From a virus (Duplodnaviria > Heunggongvirae > Uroviricota > Caudoviricetes): a stretch of DNA of 64,000 nucleotides. Position 1 is the stretch's first letter. Every line of letters starts with the position of its first letter. Below are positions 11,326-16,875 of the stretch, in pieces. Made by a program: the position numbers and the translations under genes. The stretch covers positions 224,001 to 288,000 of the IMG/VR virus record IMGVR_UViG_3300020045_008999; one strand, given 5' to 3'. The notes under the pieces are model-generated. The model ran no database searches. It saw nothing but the letters and a program-made list of their open reading frames with translations, and had not been told where the DNA came from.

Positions 11326-11860
11326 ATTAGAAAAAACAAGTAGGTATTTAGCAAAATTACTGCGACACAAACCGGAAGATTTACTAATGGATGTTGATGG
11401 TTATGTAGTAGTTAGTGATTTGTTGAGAAAGTTGTCAATTAATAATGCCGACCTTGATTGGATCGTAGAAAATAATGATAAAAAACGATTTGTTTATAAT
11501 ATTGACAAAACACTAATTAGGGCCGCTCAGGGACACAGTAAAGGTTTGGACATTGATATAAAAATGCAAGAATCATCAAGAGTAAATGTTCTATACCATG
11601 GTACGGCAGCCATAAATGTCAAGTCCATTATAAGTCTTGGTTTGGTACCAAAAAGTCGAAAACATGTTCACCTATCATCTGATGCAGAAACGGCACGGAA
11701 AGTCGGGCTAAGACACGCAAATGACGTTGTGGTGTTACAAGTAAACAGTGCTCAGATGCGAGCGGATGGTATTAAAATTTTCATTTCGGAAAATAACGTA
11801 TATCTCACTAATCATGTTGACTCCAAATACATTACATTTCCAAAAAAACCGAGCAATTAA
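11315..11860 (+). CDS. kptA: RNA 2'-phosphotransferase (Tpt1/KptA)
   Basis: LLRH, DKKRF, IRAAQGHS, LYHGT, R.HVHLS, VYLT motifs. Confidence 0.95.
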   Translation: MMNKLEKTSRYLAKLLRHKPEDLLMDVDGYVVVSDLLRKLSINNADLDWIVENNDKKRFVYNIDKTLIRAAQGHSKGLDIDIKMQESSRVNVLYHGTAAINVKSIISLGLVPKSRKHVHLSSDAETARKVGLRHANDVVVLQVNSAQMRADGIKIFISENNVYLTNHVDSKYITFPKKPSN

Positions 11861-11875
11861 TGTTCGGTTTTTTTT
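11842..11875. terminator. bidirectional intrinsic terminator
   Basis: AAAAAAACCGAGCA-ATTAA-TGTTCGGTTTTTTTT between convergent genes. Confidence 0.75.
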
Positions 11876-12285
11876 ATTTTATGTCTAAGCATTACTACGT
11901 AATCGTAAATATGCCCATATCCATCACTGATGTCTATTCGATGACAATCTTCCTCAAAATTAGCATCACCACTTTCATCAATATAACCAGAATGCGACAT
12001 TAGTATATACAACCAATAATCGTGTATGAATATTTCAATTTGATCGCATTCACCGTCATCTATATCAGTACTAATATATAAATTATTGTCAACTAATTCA
12101 AATGGTACCACATCCACCACACCCTTCAAATTTTTAAGTATATTGTAAATATCATTAATTTCATCATCAGATAGAGCATCGGTTTCGTTTCCATGCGCCT
12201 CTGAAAATTCCTCATAGGATATTTGTTCAACATTTTGAGTATGTAAATTTTCAATAAACATTTTGAATTTTTGTATCATTGCCAT
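11857..12285 (-). CDS. tandem paralog family member 11 (putative capsid-internal protein)
   Basis: MIQKFKMFIEN; IFIHDYWLY; HRIDISDG; start reassigned to 12285. Confidence 0.8.
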   Translation of the reverse strand: MAMIQKFKMFIENLHTQNVEQISYEEFSEAHGNETDALSDDEINDIYNILKNLKGVVDVVPFELVDNNLYISTDIDDGECDQIEIFIHDYWLYILMSHSGYIDESGDANFEEDCHRIDISDGYGHIYDYVVMLRHKIKKTEH

Positions 12286-12295
12286 TTTATATATG

Positions 12296-12709
12296 TTATA
12301 GTTTATTTTCGCTACGATGCATATATGCCCGATATTCATCATCAATTATATCATGATATTTTAATAAAACATCAAATATGTCATTAGATATATCAATTTT
12401 ATAATATACTGATTCTGGATCGTAATCTGAGGTAAATATGTATTCTACATATAACCAATAATCATCATCAATAAAAATTACCATTCGATCATCGTTATTG
12501 GCTGTTATATCAAACCAAATTTCTGAATATCCCGAATACTCATGCGGGTCCTCGATATCATATAAATCACATATTGTGGCTGTAATTTCATCCGGGATAA
12601 TAATATCATTGAAACCAATGCTCTTATATTCAACATACTCAGGTTCCGTTAATTTAACTATTACTTCATTTTCTACGCTCTCGGTAAATAATTTAAATTT
12701 TTTTATCAT
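12296..12709 (-). CDS. tandem paralog family member 10
   Basis: MIKKFKLFTES; FIDDDYWLY; YKIDISND. Confidence 0.85.
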   Translation of the reverse strand: MIKKFKLFTESVENEVIVKLTEPEYVEYKSIGFNDIIIPDEITATICDLYDIEDPHEYSGYSEIWFDITANNDDRMVIFIDDDYWLYVEYIFTSDYDPESVYYKIDISNDIFDVLLKYHDIIDDEYRAYMHRSENKL

Positions 12710-12712
12710 GTA

Positions 12713-13120
12713 TTATATATTAACAATTATTGTTTGCAATTCGGTGTCTAAGAATTTAGACAAAAATTCCAGCGATTCACTAACATCAATTTGCGCATAT
12801 GTTGTCAAATATTCATCATAATATTGTTGTAAAGATTCTAACTTCACATATAAATAATAATCATCATCACTAAAAATGTACCCGGTTATTGTATGATTAT
12901 ACGTAAATATCATCAACTTACCACTAGGGATATATTTTAAACCGGGCGGAACACCTGCATTTTCAAAACTTTGTTTCACAATATCAAATAACGGGCGGAA
13001 CAATTTAGATTTCGCTGATCGTGCACTAGCTTTGAATATGCTTTCATATTCGGACTGTGTTATTATGGTGATATTTTCACTATTTACACTCTCTGTAAAC
13101 CGTATGTATTTTTTAATCAT
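12713..13120 (-). CDS. tandem paralog family member 9
   Basis: MIKKYIRFTES; FSDDDYYLY; AQIDVSES. Confidence 0.85.
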   Translation of the reverse strand: MIKKYIRFTESVNSENITIITQSEYESIFKASARSAKSKLFRPLFDIVKQSFENAGVPPGLKYIPSGKLMIFTYNHTITGYIFSDDDYYLYVKLESLQQYYDEYLTTYAQIDVSESLEFLSKFLDTELQTIIVNI

Positions 13121-13135
13121 TAGAATATTTTAGTT

Positions 13136-13546
13136 TTATAAAAATTGTATTGGGGGTATAGAGTTTATAAATTTCTCAACATTAATTACACCCTCACTAA
13201 TATCAATTTTAGCACAATCTGATTCATAGTGAGCATCATTACCATTATCAATTTTCCTTTCAACATTTACATAGATATAATAATCGGAATCCGAGAAAAT
13301 ATATACATAAATACTACGATCAGTTACCATGAATGTTATTCTTTCACCATCGCCAAATTCCATAACAGACATAGTTAATCCCTGCCGTTCTACGTAATCA
13401 GTGATAATGGAAAGTATAGCAGCACACAGATCACTATCGATTACTATCCGTGAATTTTGATAAAAATCGTCAAACTCTTGTTCAGATATTATCTCAATTT
13501 CATCATTACTTATGCTTTCAACAAATCTTATAAATTTTTTAATCAT
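13136..13546 (-). CDS. tandem paralog family member 8
   Basis: MIKKFIRFVES; FSDSDYYIY; AKIDISEG. Confidence 0.85.
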   Translation of the reverse strand: MIKKFIRFVESISNDEIEIISEQEFDDFYQNSRIVIDSDLCAAILSIITDYVERQGLTMSVMEFGDGERITFMVTDRSIYVYIFSDSDYYIYVNVERKIDNGNDAHYESDCAKIDISEGVINVEKFINSIPPIQFL

Positions 13547-13943
13547 TTATTTCGTTTATAATTTCGTTTATAATCACTGAAGCCTTTTTTACTGAATCGA
13601 ATCCATCACCTATGTCAATTTTATATGAATACTGAACTGCACTTGATGACGTGATTGAGATAACATACATCAGATATGCCCAATAGTCATCATCAACGCA
13701 CAGAAGAAGCATATCATCGGTTTCATTTATAAATGAAGATAATCTACTACCAACCCGCGTACTAGTACCAGACAATCTACATGCACTATATTCCGAGAAC
13801 ACTGCAATTACTTCATCACATAAGCTCTCAGGTATTATCACACCGTTTTGTATAGCATCTGAAAATTCCTGGTTAGTTATTTCAATTACTTCATCATCAC
13901 CTTTAGACTCTAAAAACATTTTAAATTTCTTAATCATTATCAC
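13539..13943 (-). CDS. tandem paralog family member 7
   Basis: MIKKFKMFLES; VDDDYWAY; YKIDIGDG. Confidence 0.85.
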   Translation of the reverse strand: MIMIKKFKMFLESKGDDEVIEITNQEFSDAIQNGVIIPESLCDEVIAVFSEYSACRLSGTSTRVGSRLSSFINETDDMLLLCVDDDYWAYLMYVISITSSSAVQYSYKIDIGDGFDSVKKASVIINEIINEIND

Positions 13944-14361
13944 TTATCAATTTTTTCAGGATATTCCAATATTCACTCATATTGCTATACCCGTCGGAGA
14001 TGTCTATTTTGTGATACCAGGCTCTCACACCCGGTTGTGGAACAAAACGTACATAACCATCAGATGTGGTGATGATTTTATATTCTGGGATAGTATAAGT
14101 AATATACAACCAATAGTCATCATCTATGAATAAGTAAATATTTTCCATCGTTTTAGATTCACCATGTAATTCACAATCACTATTGTCATAGTATAATACA
14201 ATTTTATTCATTTCACTAGTTATATCGACAAACATATCATGTTCAATTTTGACTTGAATATTGCCTCGGGCACGATCCCAATCATCGCGAGTGATTTGTA
14301 CTACATTTTCTTCGGGATTGTTATTTTCTAAAAATAGTTTAAACTTAGTAATCATCATCAA
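13930..14361 (-). CDS. tandem paralog family member 6
   Basis: MITKFKLFLEN; FIDDDYWLY; YHKIDISDG. Confidence 0.85.
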   Translation of the reverse strand: MMMITKFKLFLENNNPEENVVQITRDDWDRARGNIQVKIEHDMFVDITSEMNKIVLYYDNSDCELHGESKTMENIYLFIDDDYWLYITYTIPEYKIITTSDGYVRFVPQPGVRAWYHKIDISDGYSNMSEYWNILKKLISDND

Positions 14362-14782
14362 TATTTAATTTATCTCTAATAGCTTCTATAATATTTAAAT
14401 ATTCCGGAACGTTATCATAACCATTACCAATATCTATTTTGTGATACAATTCGGTTGGTTCGATAATCTCATCTAATCGGAATCCTGGTTTATACGACAT
14501 TGAATAATTTACATATAACCAGTAATCATTATCCATAAACAAATTCAGCTGGTCATAAAAATTCGATTCAGCGCTAATGCTAAACCTAGTATCATCATAA
14601 TCAAAATAAAATTCTCTTCTTGGATTAAAAACAGCACGAATTCCAATTAGTGAATTTTCTGGGAATACTATGCGATCATTAAGCCATGCATAATTCCAAT
14701 CACTTAAAGTGATCTCTATTACGACATCATCTGTATTAATATTTTCCAAAAATAATTTGAAATTAGTTATCATTTTGATCAT
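14345..14782 (-). CDS. tandem paralog family member 5
   Basis: MITNFKLFLEN; FMDNDYWLY; YHKIDIGNG. Confidence 0.85.
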   Translation of the reverse strand: MIKMITNFKLFLENINTDDVVIEITLSDWNYAWLNDRIVFPENSLIGIRAVFNPRREFYFDYDDTRFSISAESNFYDQLNLFMDNDYWLYVNYSMSYKPGFRLDEIIEPTELYHKIDIGNGYDNVPEYLNIIEAIRDKLNIDDDY

Positions 14783-14792
14783 TTTATAAAAT

Positions 14793-15170
14793 TTAGTTCT
14801 CGGCTGTTATGTTAATAATCTCACAGTATTTCTCAGTATACTCATATCCATTAGCAATATCTATTTTGTGATATTGGTAATTCGGGGACTCTTGACAATA
14901 TTTTACCCACATATAATAGTCTGTATCAATAAATATATACAGATTAATGTTACGATACTCGAATGACATTGAATTCGTTGCATCGCTTTCACATGGTGTG
15001 TATTTTATATCAATATACGGCCTGAATGCGTCGATTATTACATCAACATCAGATTGACCAAATGAAACACTTGATTCTTCAAAAGTTTCATAATATTCAT
15101 ACTCACTAACTTCTTCGACATACTCGTTTGCGTTATTATTTTCCAGAAATAATTTAAAATTAGTTATCAT
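14793..15170 (-). CDS. tandem paralog family member 4
   Basis: MITNFKLFLEN; FIDTDYYMW; YHKIDIANG. Confidence 0.85.
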   Translation of the reverse strand: MITNFKLFLENNNANEYVEEVSEYEYYETFEESSVSFGQSDVDVIIDAFRPYIDIKYTPCESDATNSMSFEYRNINLYIFIDTDYYMWVKYCQESPNYQYHKIDIANGYEYTEKYCEIINITAEN

Positions 15171-15594
15171 CCTCTCCCATTAATTTATATTCTTCCTCTA
15201 ACATCACTTTGGTTTTATCTAACAGCTGCATGTAATCCGAAATATAATTATACCCATCAGAAATATCAATTTTATGATAAAGCTCACATGGTTCATAATA
15301 AAAATCAAACTCATATCTTACCCACAAATAATAATCTGAATCAAAAAACATTTCATACCTACCCGGGTCATTTCCTATATCGAAGTTCAACATATGGACA
15401 ATATCCCCACCATCGTCATCATCGCGATTAAGTATGTGATATTTACTAAAACCGGATATGATTTTATCACAATCATCATCATTAATATGGATACTATTAG
15501 TTTTAAACTCATCCCAAAATTCTGCGATATTCACTTCAACAACATTATCTGAATCTGCGATACTTTCTAAAAATAATTTATATTTTTTTATCAT
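15160..15594 (-). CDS. tandem paralog family member 3
   Basis: MIKKYKLFLES; FFDSDYYLW; YHKIDISDG. Confidence 0.85.
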   Translation of the reverse strand: MIKKYKLFLESIADSDNVVEVNIAEFWDEFKTNSIHINDDDCDKIISGFSKYHILNRDDDDGGDIVHMLNFDIGNDPGRYEMFFDSDYYLWVRYEFDFYYEPCELYHKIDISDGYNYISDYMQLLDKTKVMLEEEYKLMGEDDN

Positions 15595-16091
15595 TATTCT
15601 CTATTTCTTTTTTGATCCACTATTTCTAAATATTCTGCAATATGGATAAACCCTTCACTAATATCGATTTTGTGGTAAATTGATAAGTAATTATCAGAAT
15701 CTTCATAATCCTCGTCGTCATATATTTGATCGTCATCCCAATAATCACCATCACCATCACCATCACCATCACCATCACCATCAATTTGATCGACATCCCA
15801 GTACTCGCGATCTACCATTCTAATATCATAATTTATATATAACCAATAATCACTATCCAAGAATAAATAAACACTGTCGTCTGGTCCGTTCATGGATGCC
15901 TCTTTACCACTACGCGCCCTAGAAAAGATTAAATCTGATTCAACAAGTGTATTGTTTATATCATCAACAAATGATTGATCTATGTGAATAGCATACAGAT
16001 TATATTGATCATTATACTCATCTGCACTAATTTCAACAATATTATCCTCGGTGTCTATACTTTCTAAAAATAGTTTATATTTTGTTATCAT
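15594..16091 (-). CDS. tandem paralog family member 2 (with DG-repeat loop)
   Basis: MITKYKLFLES; FLDSDYWLY; YHKIDISEG. Confidence 0.85.
   Translation of the reverse strand: MITKYKLFLESIDTEDNIVEISADEYNDQYNLYAIHIDQSFVDDINNTLVESDLIFSRARSGKEASMNGPDDSVYLFLDSDYWLYINYDIRMVDREYWDVDQIDGDGDGDGDGDGDYWDDDQIYDDEDYEDSDNYLSIYHKIDISEGFIHIAEYLEIVDQKRNRE
15745..15783. repeat. hexanucleotide microsatellite (TCACCA)x6.5 encoding poly(DG)
   Basis: direct reading of sequence. Confidence 0.95.
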
Positions 16092-16095
16092 TACT

Positions 16096-16506
16096 CTACT
16101 CTATGTTTCTTTTTTGATCCACTATTTTCAAATATTTTTCAATGTGAATGAGACCTTCACTGATGTCTATTTTGTGATATAATGAACTGTAATTTTCGTT
16201 GGGAGCACCACTAGCGGATACCGGCATAATATCGTAATTTACATATAACCAATAATCATTATCAATAAAAACGCTCATCAGCTCATCATTATGTGAATAA
16301 TTAAATGCGCTTATTTCACTGCTAGATATTTTCAAAATTGAATCAGATGAAGTTCTACCCAATGCAATATTCAATTCATGTAAAAAACCCGGATCCATAC
16401 AAATACTATCTAACTCAAACTGTGCATCGTATTCATCTACACTAATTTCAATGATATTATCTTCGGTGTCTATACTTTCCAAAAATAATTTAAATTTTTT
16501 TATCAT
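16096..16506 (-). CDS. tandem paralog family member 1
   Basis: MIKKFKLFLES; FIDNDYWLY; YHKIDISEG. Confidence 0.85.
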   Translation of the reverse strand: MIKKFKLFLESIDTEDNIIEISVDEYDAQFELDSICMDPGFLHELNIALGRTSSDSILKISSSEISAFNYSHNDELMSVFIDNDYWLYVNYDIMPVSASGAPNENYSSLYHKIDISEGLIHIEKYLKIVDQKRNIE

Positions 16507-16510
16507 AATC

Positions 16511-16520
16511 TATATATTAA
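16511..16520 (-). promoter_or_regulatory. putative late promoter (TTAATATATA) heading the paralog array
   Basis: 4 nt upstream of ATG; same motif precedes about 19 genes including the baseplate gene. Confidence 0.65.
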
Positions 16521-16536
16521 TAATATCTTTGTAAAT

Positions 16537-16875
16537 ATGAAAATAGTTAGATCTAAAGAACATCGTATATACCAAAAACATTTTTGGATAAAAAAACGGT
16601 TAGTTAGATTTCACCAAACATCACTAAGCAAATACCCCTCAAAAGATGCCTCTTCTATTTTACGAGATATGCATTGTTGGTATTTTCGAATAGGCACTAT
16701 ACCATATTTTATATTCAAATCTAATAAATGGGATAGTAAATTTGAAGATAAACCTAGATACGGTAAGAAGAAACGATCACACTATGTCGATAACCGGGAT
16801 TATGGTAAAACTTCGTCAAGAATATTAGATAAAAAAGAATTTAATCAGTTATTGAAATACTATGGACTTATGTAA
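16537..16875 (+). CDS. basic hypothetical protein
   Basis: K/R-rich ORF after TATCTTTG (16524-16531). Confidence 0.5.
   Translation: MKIVRSKEHRIYQKHFWIKKRLVRFHQTSLSKYPSKDASSILRDMHCWYFRIGTIPYFIFKSNKWDSKFEDKPRYGKKKRSHYVDNRDYGKTSSRILDKKEFNQLLKYYGLM

Follow-up and report, generated by a model that had tools for sequence, protein, structure and literature searches.

What use would a huge phage have for 11 consecutive copies of one small gene, and why do the encoded proteins, so variable elsewhere, all begin with nearly the same ten residues? The locus that raises this question lies in a 64,000-nucleotide stretch of DNA, here called the window, which comprises bases 224001-288000 of the IMG/VR virus record IMGVR_UViG_3300020045_008999, the 596,785-bp genome of an uncultured phage (completeness rating, 98%; G+C content, ~32%). 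The 11 paralogs, encoding proteins of 125 to 165 amino acids (aa), occupy positions 11857-16506 on the minus strand, with intergenic distances of -11 to +19 nucleotides (nt). An earlier interpretation, made from the letters of the window without database searches (the sequence-only reading), had recognized this tightly coupled array, and all true starts of its genes were located within the interval. It had also proposed that the proteins carry a capsid-targeting-like leader and are injected into the host to counter its defenses. We consider it roughly an even bet (a probability of about 0.5) that the N-terminal peptide is a head-loading tag like that of phage T4 and that the array encodes late-made internal head proteins.

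A conserved leader on a variable family

The 11 copies align as one family, with M1, I2, F8, E10, D84, Y85, I113, and D114 invariant and F80, D82, and I115 nearly so. The family profile picks out exactly 11 places in the genome, at E values of 5e-33 to 6e-44, and the resemblance is therefore one of paralogy and not of chance. All three motifs described earlier, MI(K/T/Q)(K/N)(F/Y)xxFxE(S/N), F.D.DY(W/Y)xY, and (K/R/Q)ID(I/V)(S/G/A), are present (copy 11 has a core without the first D of the second motif), and so are the two variable segments: among 22 family members, the segment preceding the core measures 14 to 37 residues and the loop that joins the core to KIDIS 4 to 45. The proteins had also been called rich in acidic and aromatic residues. 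Their mature forms are acidic, with isoelectric points (pI) of 4.05 to 4.64 and net charges of -6 to -36 (genome median pI for proteins of 100 to 200 aa, 5.46), and their aromatic content is 9 to 19%, against a median of 11%.

All 11 copies carry M-I-x-x-(F/Y)-x-x-F-x-E, and residues 1 to 11 form the most conserved segment of the 22 members (mean column entropy of 0.71 bits versus 1.6 to 3.0 bits elsewhere). In every ortholog pair the leader is 64 to 100% identical, though identity in the second variable loop falls to 4 to 62%. Even the most distant homologs (P0018, P0019, and P0023) keep F-K-L-F-x-E-(S/N), with its distance from the Met shifted by 1 to 3 residues. Different synonymous codons specify the invariant leader residues, and Ser at position 11 comes from either of its codon families; selection therefore acts on the leader as a peptide. 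In the AlphaFold2 (AF2) models of copies 1 and 4, it is disordered. The leader is a separate, strongly constrained module that ends in hydrophobic-x-Glu.

A leader of this type (Met, a basic residue, an aromatic residue, then hydrophobic-x-Glu, then Ser or Asn) is also found on many proteins outside the array. Using a gene call made for this analysis (874 genes genome-wide), we found [ILFVM]-N-E starting at residues 4 to 14 in 30 proteins outside the family, against an expectation of 7.7 derived from residues 25 to 100 (P = 8e-10). Three permuted residue orders were not enriched (ratios of 0.8 to 1.0), and two were mildly so (2.0 and 2.4), both overlapping the leader itself. The 55 proteins that satisfy a stricter leader rule fall into 37 unrelated clusters, other tandem families among them; ~45 proteins outside the array (37 clusters) start with a leader of the MK(H/Y)(I/L)KxF(N)E type. 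The set outside the array includes a family of 591- to 744-aa proteins, one of which has ankyrin repeats, as well as two more arrays of tandem paralogs. In Pfam and PHROGs searches of 20 other leader-bearing proteins, the yield was limited to an M23 peptidase, an ankyrin protein, and two subthreshold matches on a third protein. The pattern recurs in bases 1-381000 of LR745206, a 635-kb relative (25 proteins versus 7.4 expected), where 63 of 525 called genes carry the leader, 36 of them with a TAATATATA-type motif at most 45 nt upstream. In LR745206.1 (L044:1045-1683), an unrelated protein of ~212 aa begins M-I-K-K-W-V-K-F-L-E-S, nearly the array's own leader.

The breadth of this class suits an alternative that we regard as doubtful, namely, that the array encodes late cytoplasmic proteins that are never packaged and that the N-terminal peptide serves a large class of late proteins in another way: as a sorting, assembly-factory, or chaperone-recognition tag, as a stability signal, or as a peptide-level need in translating nearly leaderless mRNAs. 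A leader on 6 to 12% of all genes would be a great deal of capsid cargo, and that cargo would be mostly acidic, given that leader-bearing proteins have a median pI of 4.76 versus 5.46 for other proteins (P = 0.001). Against it, the motif depends on residue order and not on composition, and it has been kept through synonymous changes. The head-loading interpretation draws on two further lines of evidence, the head proteins of this phage and the promoters of its late genes, which bear on this alternative as well.

Head proteins, cleavage rule, and late-type promoters

By its match to PF07068 (E = 7e-25), the capsid protein falls within the T4 Gp23 family. Because its nearest GenBank relatives are capsid proteins of the 634- to 735-kb huge phages LR745206, LR756502, LR756504, and LR756501 (51 to 67% identity), with those of Lak phages only ~30% identical, the phage can be placed within the Mahaphage clade. 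The predicted hosts of Mahaphages are Bacteroidetes (PMC7162821), and a TAnnTTTG element upstream of ~143 genes fits a Bacteroidetes host. Adjoining the capsid gene is a gene for a 680-aa protein (G000:C1:446370-448412, minus strand) that starts with a gp21-like protease domain (PF03420 at E = 1e-5; T4 gp21 by BLASTP at E = 2e-6). This domain makes up only the first ~160 residues, T4 gp21 being 212 aa long, and the long C-terminal part could be a fused scaffold.

In T4, the capsid-targeting sequence (CTS) has ~10 residues, is removed by a single cleavage, and brings any protein fused to it into the head (PMC8442874, PMC3012670). The protease gp21, which cleaves behind (L/I)-x-Glu, removes this tag once (PMC8442874). 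A similar rule can be traced at three places here. The N terminus of the protease, L-I-V-E-N, aligns with L-L-I-E-T of T4. Six capsid proteins of related huge phages keep (I/M/L)-x-E-N at residues 42 to 45, directly before the conserved body, and the capsid propeptide is probably cleaved at hydrophobic-x-E-N. Lastly, in a gene of the related contig L014 in which two copies of the array family are fused, the second leader is lost and I-N-E-S is retained exactly where that leader would end. The capsid-targeting-like leader of the sequence-only reading thus stands as a conserved module, shared by unrelated genes, in a phage with a T4-type capsid and a gp21-like protease; its proposed targeting function is backed by circumstantial evidence.

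As for timing, the word TTAATATATA(G) is the most enriched of all upstream words (11- to 16-fold), sits 4 nt or 17 to 24 nt upstream of ~137 start codons, and has 11 matches in the window versus 3.0 expected. The late-type motifs noticed earlier at 16511 and 12714 are two of these matches, each 4 nt before an ATG. Since it precedes the capsid gene, the head of the protease operon, and the terminase, gp25 baseplate, and uvsW homologs, we read TTAATATATA as a probable late promoter, the counterpart of T4's TATAAATA. In L011, L017, and L015 it is conserved ahead of the family gene that comes first or stands alone, and in all it is conserved before the family in four phage lineages. Leader genes have a TAATATATA-type motif more often than other genes (16/45 versus 131/818; Fisher P = 0.002) and the host-type TAnnTTTG less often (1/45 versus 123/818; P = 0.014). 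Sigma-70-type promoters are matched in the array about as often as by chance (48 matches versus 42 expected). Genome-wide, the late-type motif ends exactly 4 nt before the ATG at 44 genes, with a second peak at 17 to 24 nt, a pattern suggestive of late mRNAs that in many cases have little or no 5' leader. The large terminase homolog matches T4 gp17 in two adjacent open reading frames (G000:C1:377263-377778 and 377803-380037, plus strand; E = 5e-14 and 4e-27) and is either a split gene or one interrupted by ~25 nt.

Such short spacing would favor a role of the peptide in translation: many late genes, copies 1 and 10 included, have the motif 4 nt from the ATG, where the first codons may affect initiation. 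However, the leader is not bound to this geometry, since the leader genes with the motif comprise 5 with near (4-nt) and 11 with far spacing. Nor would a cytoplasmic role lead one to expect that the leader ends in hydrophobic-x-Glu, the rule of gp21-class proteases, in a phage that has such a protease and the same rule in its capsid propeptide.

Under the head-loading interpretation, the array would be one lineage-specific family of small acidic alpha+beta proteins, transcribed together with the late structural genes from the TTAATATATA-type promoters 4 nt upstream of copies 1 and 10. The disordered leader of ~10 residues would act like the T4 CTS and direct each protein into the core of the assembling prohead, where the gp21-type protease would cut it off behind the invariant Glu10, between F-x-E and S/N. 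The mature domains (~115 to 155 residues), each predicted to consist of a conserved five-stranded sheet packed by helices and of two segments free in length and sequence, would be retained as internal proteins of the head and probably accompany the DNA into the host. We infer targeting, cleavage, retention, and ejection by this route; any target of the mature domains in the host is a matter of speculation.

Relatives, predicted fold, and possible roles

The family profile yielded 21 matches in 1.84 billion representative proteins, all from this genome or a few metagenomic contigs. The 28.8-kb Logan contig L011 is syntenic and ends within the array; as orthologs, its first three copies correspond one to one to copies 1 to 3 (identities in Table 1), and its flanking genes are 42 to 90% identical to ours (median near 67%). 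At these levels of protein identity (43 to 69% for the ortholog pairs), synonymous sites are saturated for the ratio of nonsynonymous to synonymous substitution rates. L014, a 3.3-kb JGI contig, spans the far end of the array: a copy-7-like gene is followed, with no copy 8, by copies 9 and 10 fused in frame, one extra copy, two copy-11-like genes, and then Tpt1/KptA. The fused gene (L014:338-1165, plus strand) encodes a 275-aa protein with I-N-E-S at the junction in place of the second leader. In L017, an 11-kb contig of GCA_040384045.1, the same slot, which lies between a block of genes for a 113-aa protein, a 183-aa protein, and a 5'-3' exonuclease and the Tpt1/KptA gene, is occupied by just one copy, a very divergent one. 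The five nearest complete huge-phage genomes hold no member; the sole match of the family profile there is a leader-bearing unrelated protein.

Copy number thus differs among related phages (1, at least 6, and 11), and so do the loops, much as the sequence-only reading had expected. Because relatives are few and metagenomic, copy makeup differs among L011, L014, and L017, and none of the five huge phages has a member, the family is young and narrow and has been gained and lost copy by copy. The accordion-like recent expansion that had been proposed was nevertheless an overstatement: copies 1 to 3 have one-to-one orthologs in L011, which diverged no faster than their flanks, and the copies in this genome mostly predate the split from L011. 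The supposed recent duplication of copies 1 and 2 was rejected, since their similar ends share only 72 to 78% nucleotide identity and each copy has its own ortholog in the related contig; this duplication is old. The Asp-rich insert of copy 2 (window positions 15700-15800) holds a (DG)6 run, and the L011 ortholog has a different acidic insert of similar length; the loop therefore alters by insertion and repeat slippage.

The AF2 models of copies 1 and 4 agree in fold, consistent with the common fold presupposed earlier: the first 12 to 14 residues are disordered, and the ordered part opens with a short strand and a pair of helices, continues as an antiparallel sheet of five strands, and closes with a C-terminal helix. 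Searches for known relatives of the family returned little. With Pfam and PHROGs, all copies gave only scattered single-copy matches (E = 0.005 to 0.09), and PF12699, the giant-phage inner-body or head paralog family A, was matched by 0 of the 11 copies even at E values up to 1. No match to the family was found by blastn and tblastn against GenBank phages, and no confirmed relative by pattern scans of viral and metagenome contig collections. The best hit of the PDB sequence profile was a TetR protein at E = 0.015, which we took as chance. Foldseek gave nothing at E ≤ 0.001 against PDB and BFVD, and ESM Atlas, searched by shape and by features, gave no usable match (template modeling [TM] score ≤ 0.5). 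In VIA-align wide, where Z scores under 8 are the tool's stated noise level, the best scores of the two models were background-level matches to Mediator Med17 (Z = 6.2 to 6.7), with the TriTu immunity protein, type III secretion system (T3SS) chaperones, and hibernation factors at Z of ~5, also noise. Nothing significant to IPI*, IPII, or IPIII emerged from Pfam, PHROGs, the PDB profile, Foldseek on PDB and BFVD, or VIA-align wide, and the matches listed contained no fold or sequence relative among the known inhibitors and DNA mimics Ocr, ArdA, and Arn. The Pfam, PHROG, PDB, and fold searches were thus empty of any known structural or enzymatic family, a match that the sequence-only reading had held to be damaging to its case.

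The T3SS hits nevertheless recur, and one might imagine the copies as small acidic chaperones of this kind that keep other leader-bearing cargo fit for packaging or ejection. Their size of 125 to 165 aa and pI of ~4 would fit, as would the weak matches to SycN-YscB (Z = 5.8), VecA (5.1), SycH (5.1), and Spa15/SicP (4.3 to 4.9) and a Foldseek TM score of ~0.4 to class I T3SS chaperones. We find this highly improbable. The superpositions on class I chaperones (Z = 4.3 to 5.8 over 75 to 94 residues, with root mean square deviations of 2.9 to 5.7 Å) all lie within the noise level, and unrelated folds such as Med17 and the hibernation factors score equally well or better. Moreover, the topology of two N-terminal helices, a five-stranded meander, and a helix differs from the chaperone order, and the copies are without paired partner genes.

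Returning to internal head proteins, several observations weigh against this interpretation. Net charges of -6 to -36 should be unfavorable beside packed DNA, T4 internal proteins being highly basic and in contact with DNA (PMC8442874, PMC3012670), and this acidity is shared by the leader-bearing proteins as a class. The P3 residue is Phe in every copy, as opposed to Leu or Ile at T4 sites and I/M/L in the capsid propeptides of the clade. The PF03420 match of the protease falls under the Pfam cutoff (23.4 versus 27 bits). The leader set, defined by a regular expression, is noisy, and its M23 peptidase is probably a false member, as the L015 ortholog lacks the motif. Cleavage-like motifs inside the mature domains are neither depleted nor enriched (6 versus 5.2 expected). 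The assignment to late expression follows from motif association, and the orthologs of copies 1 to 3 in L011 diverge no faster than flanking genes.

Alternatively, the copies might be accessory proteins of the prohead core or scaffold, acidic fillers of a very large assembly core that are targeted by the leader but degraded and expelled at maturation, with no delivery to the host. T4 has such core proteins in gp22, gp67, and gp68, which are degraded and expelled at head maturation. The copies are acidic like T4 core proteins, the long Asp/Glu tail of gp67 resembles the acidic insert of copy 2, each mature copy contains 2 to 3 internal [ILFM]-x-E motifs on average, and leader, late motif, and protease speak for this role as they do for the cargo interpretation. 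Still, we judge this role quite unlikely. Were the copies needed structurally, their number should be constant, but one relative has a single copy in the slot and the closest complete relatives none; the fold is compact and confidently modeled (predicted local distance difference test [pLDDT] scores of 79 to 86) and not an extended helical scaffold; and the internal cleavage-like sites are at chance level.

If the copies are indeed internal head proteins, what would they do? Their gain and loss between relatives suggests a dispensable, host-facing binder role, in host takeover or counterdefense. Loop variability and copy gain and loss are compatible with anti-defense activity, with DNA mimicry, and with one loop variant per defense allele, but single none of these out. 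It is tempting to go further and imagine a capsid-delivered binder repertoire, in which a fixed alpha+beta scaffold bears two hypervariable loops and the paralogs, loaded via a clade-wide tag, are each adapted to a separate host protein, be it a defense protein or a takeover target. We consider this elaborate version unlikely. Were it true, a tag that marks 6 to 12% of genes in Mahaphage-type megaphages would define the largest prepackaged phage protein arsenal known.

The consequences would reach beyond this family. Mahaphage-type genomes contain a very large class of leader-bearing genes; if the leader works as a capsid-targeting and cleavage tag, it would provide a sequence-only listing of what the largest phages carry into Bacteroidota cells. 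Each genome would then specify dozens of such cargo proteins, hardly any of them with a known function, the 11-copy family being the largest block; phages of 0.6 Mb would also have retained T4-style head loading and extended it greatly, and acidic proteins would qualify as cargo. As a scaffold, the family is small and predicted to fold well, with two naturally variable loops, and its targets could reveal defenses or takeover points of Bacteroidota.

Layout of the locus and comparison with known systems

The features of the array are collected in Table 1, together with examples of leader-bearing genes elsewhere in the genome. To its left lies the convergent gene of a Tpt1/KptA RNA 2'-phosphotransferase (PF01885, E = 6e-40), and to its right a divergent gene at 16537 with the host-type TAnnTTTG 5 nt upstream of its ATG. 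In the 30-nt spacer between copy 1 and this divergent gene, the TAnnTTTG element (window positions 16521-16540) stands back to back with the late-type motif, and early and late units therefore diverge from one spot.

Table 1. Positions of the array features in the window, and of leader-bearing genes outside the array in genome coordinates (G000:C1); pTM, predicted TM score.
Feature	Position	Strand	Remarks
Copy 1 (136 aa)	16096..16506	-	Promoter proximal; AF2 pLDDT 79, residues 1-14 disordered; L011 ortholog 69% identical
Copy 2 (165 aa)	15594..16091	-	45-residue acidic insert with (DG) repeat in second variable loop; net charge -36; L011 ortholog 62% identical
Copy 3 (144 aa)	15160..15594	-	Found by family profile; L011 ortholog 43% identical
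Copy 4 (125 aa)	14793..15170	-	Shortest copy, minimal loops; AF2 pLDDT 86, pTM 0.78, same fold as copy 1
Copy 5 (142 aa)	14345..14773	-	Alignment and family profile
Copy 6 (141 aa)	13930..14355	-	Alignment and family profile
Copy 7 (132 aa)	13539..13937	-	Orthologs are P0015 and the partial gene that starts L014
Copy 8 (136 aa)	13136..13546	-	Counterpart absent from related contig L014
Copy 9 (135 aa)	12713..13120	-	Least acidic, net charge -6; ortholog is N-terminal half of L014 fused gene
Copy 10 (137 aa)	12296..12709	-	Own promoter motif; ortholog is C-terminal half of L014 fused gene
Copy 11 (140 aa)	11857..12279	-	Last copy; end overlaps convergent Tpt1/KptA gene by 4 nt
TTAATATATA motif	16511..16520	-	4 nt upstream of copy 1 ATG; read as late-type promoter
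Second TTAATATATA motif	12714..12723	-	4 nt upstream of copy 10 ATG
Terminator-like hairpin, A and T runs on both sides	11842..11874	.	Between copy 11 and convergent Tpt1/KptA gene
Leader-gene examples	G000:C1:499333-501632, 505344-509194, 341478-343253		Leader bearing, outside array
Leader-gene examples	G000:C1:387728-389962, 391967-394180, 467557-469398		Leader bearing, outside array

In composition, the proteins recall T7 Ocr, ArdA, and T4 Arn, which are likewise small, with a pI near 4 and a large negative net charge. However, those inhibitors are synthesized early, ahead of DNA entry or during it, whereas the array has a late-type promoter and no host-type motif; neither fold nor sequence similarity to them was found, and copy 9 carries a net charge of only -6.

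Among known systems, the array comes closest to the CTS-bearing internal proteins of T4 and to the families of paralogous head proteins found in giant phages such as SPN3US, although it is homologous to neither. Like the T4 CTS, its leader extends ~10 residues after the Met, has aromatic and hydrophobic residues spaced 3 apart, ends in hydrophobic-x-Glu, and is common to otherwise unrelated proteins of one phage, a phage which, like T4, has a gp23-type capsid protein and a gp21-type protease. As for the T4 internal proteins, the genes lie outside the head gene cluster, the content of the locus differs between relatives, and the predicted fold is a small sheet flanked by N- and C-terminal helices, as in IPI* (PMC3012670). 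In contrast to the T4 proteins, with which they share no sequence homology, the copies have Phe and not Ile or Leu at P3 and belong to one paralogous family in 11 tandem copies, whereas the T4 internal proteins are unrelated and have only the tag in common. The leader class is also far larger here (~45 to 63 genes per genome).

The tandem arrangement, on the other hand, has its counterpart in giant-phage heads, which hold tandem paralog families of 2 to 20 members (PMC5694885). SPN3US-type phages, unlike the array's phage, rely on a protease of the S80 type, whose rule is (S/A/G)-x-E, and the copies match neither PF12699, the profile of SPN3US family A, nor any other Pfam or PHROG family; the SPN3US-type paralogs, in contrast to the copies, have been detected in virions by mass spectrometry. 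Yet family B of SPN3US (20 members, gps 138-154), like family A and the inner-body proteins of phiKZ, consists of tandem arrays of paralogous head proteins of unknown function, and in these families, too, the number of members varies widely between related phages, from 2 to 20. The SPN3US paralogs gp53 and gp54 even have identical N-terminal propeptides while the rest of their sequences has diverged (PMC5694885), which resembles the constant leader of the array.

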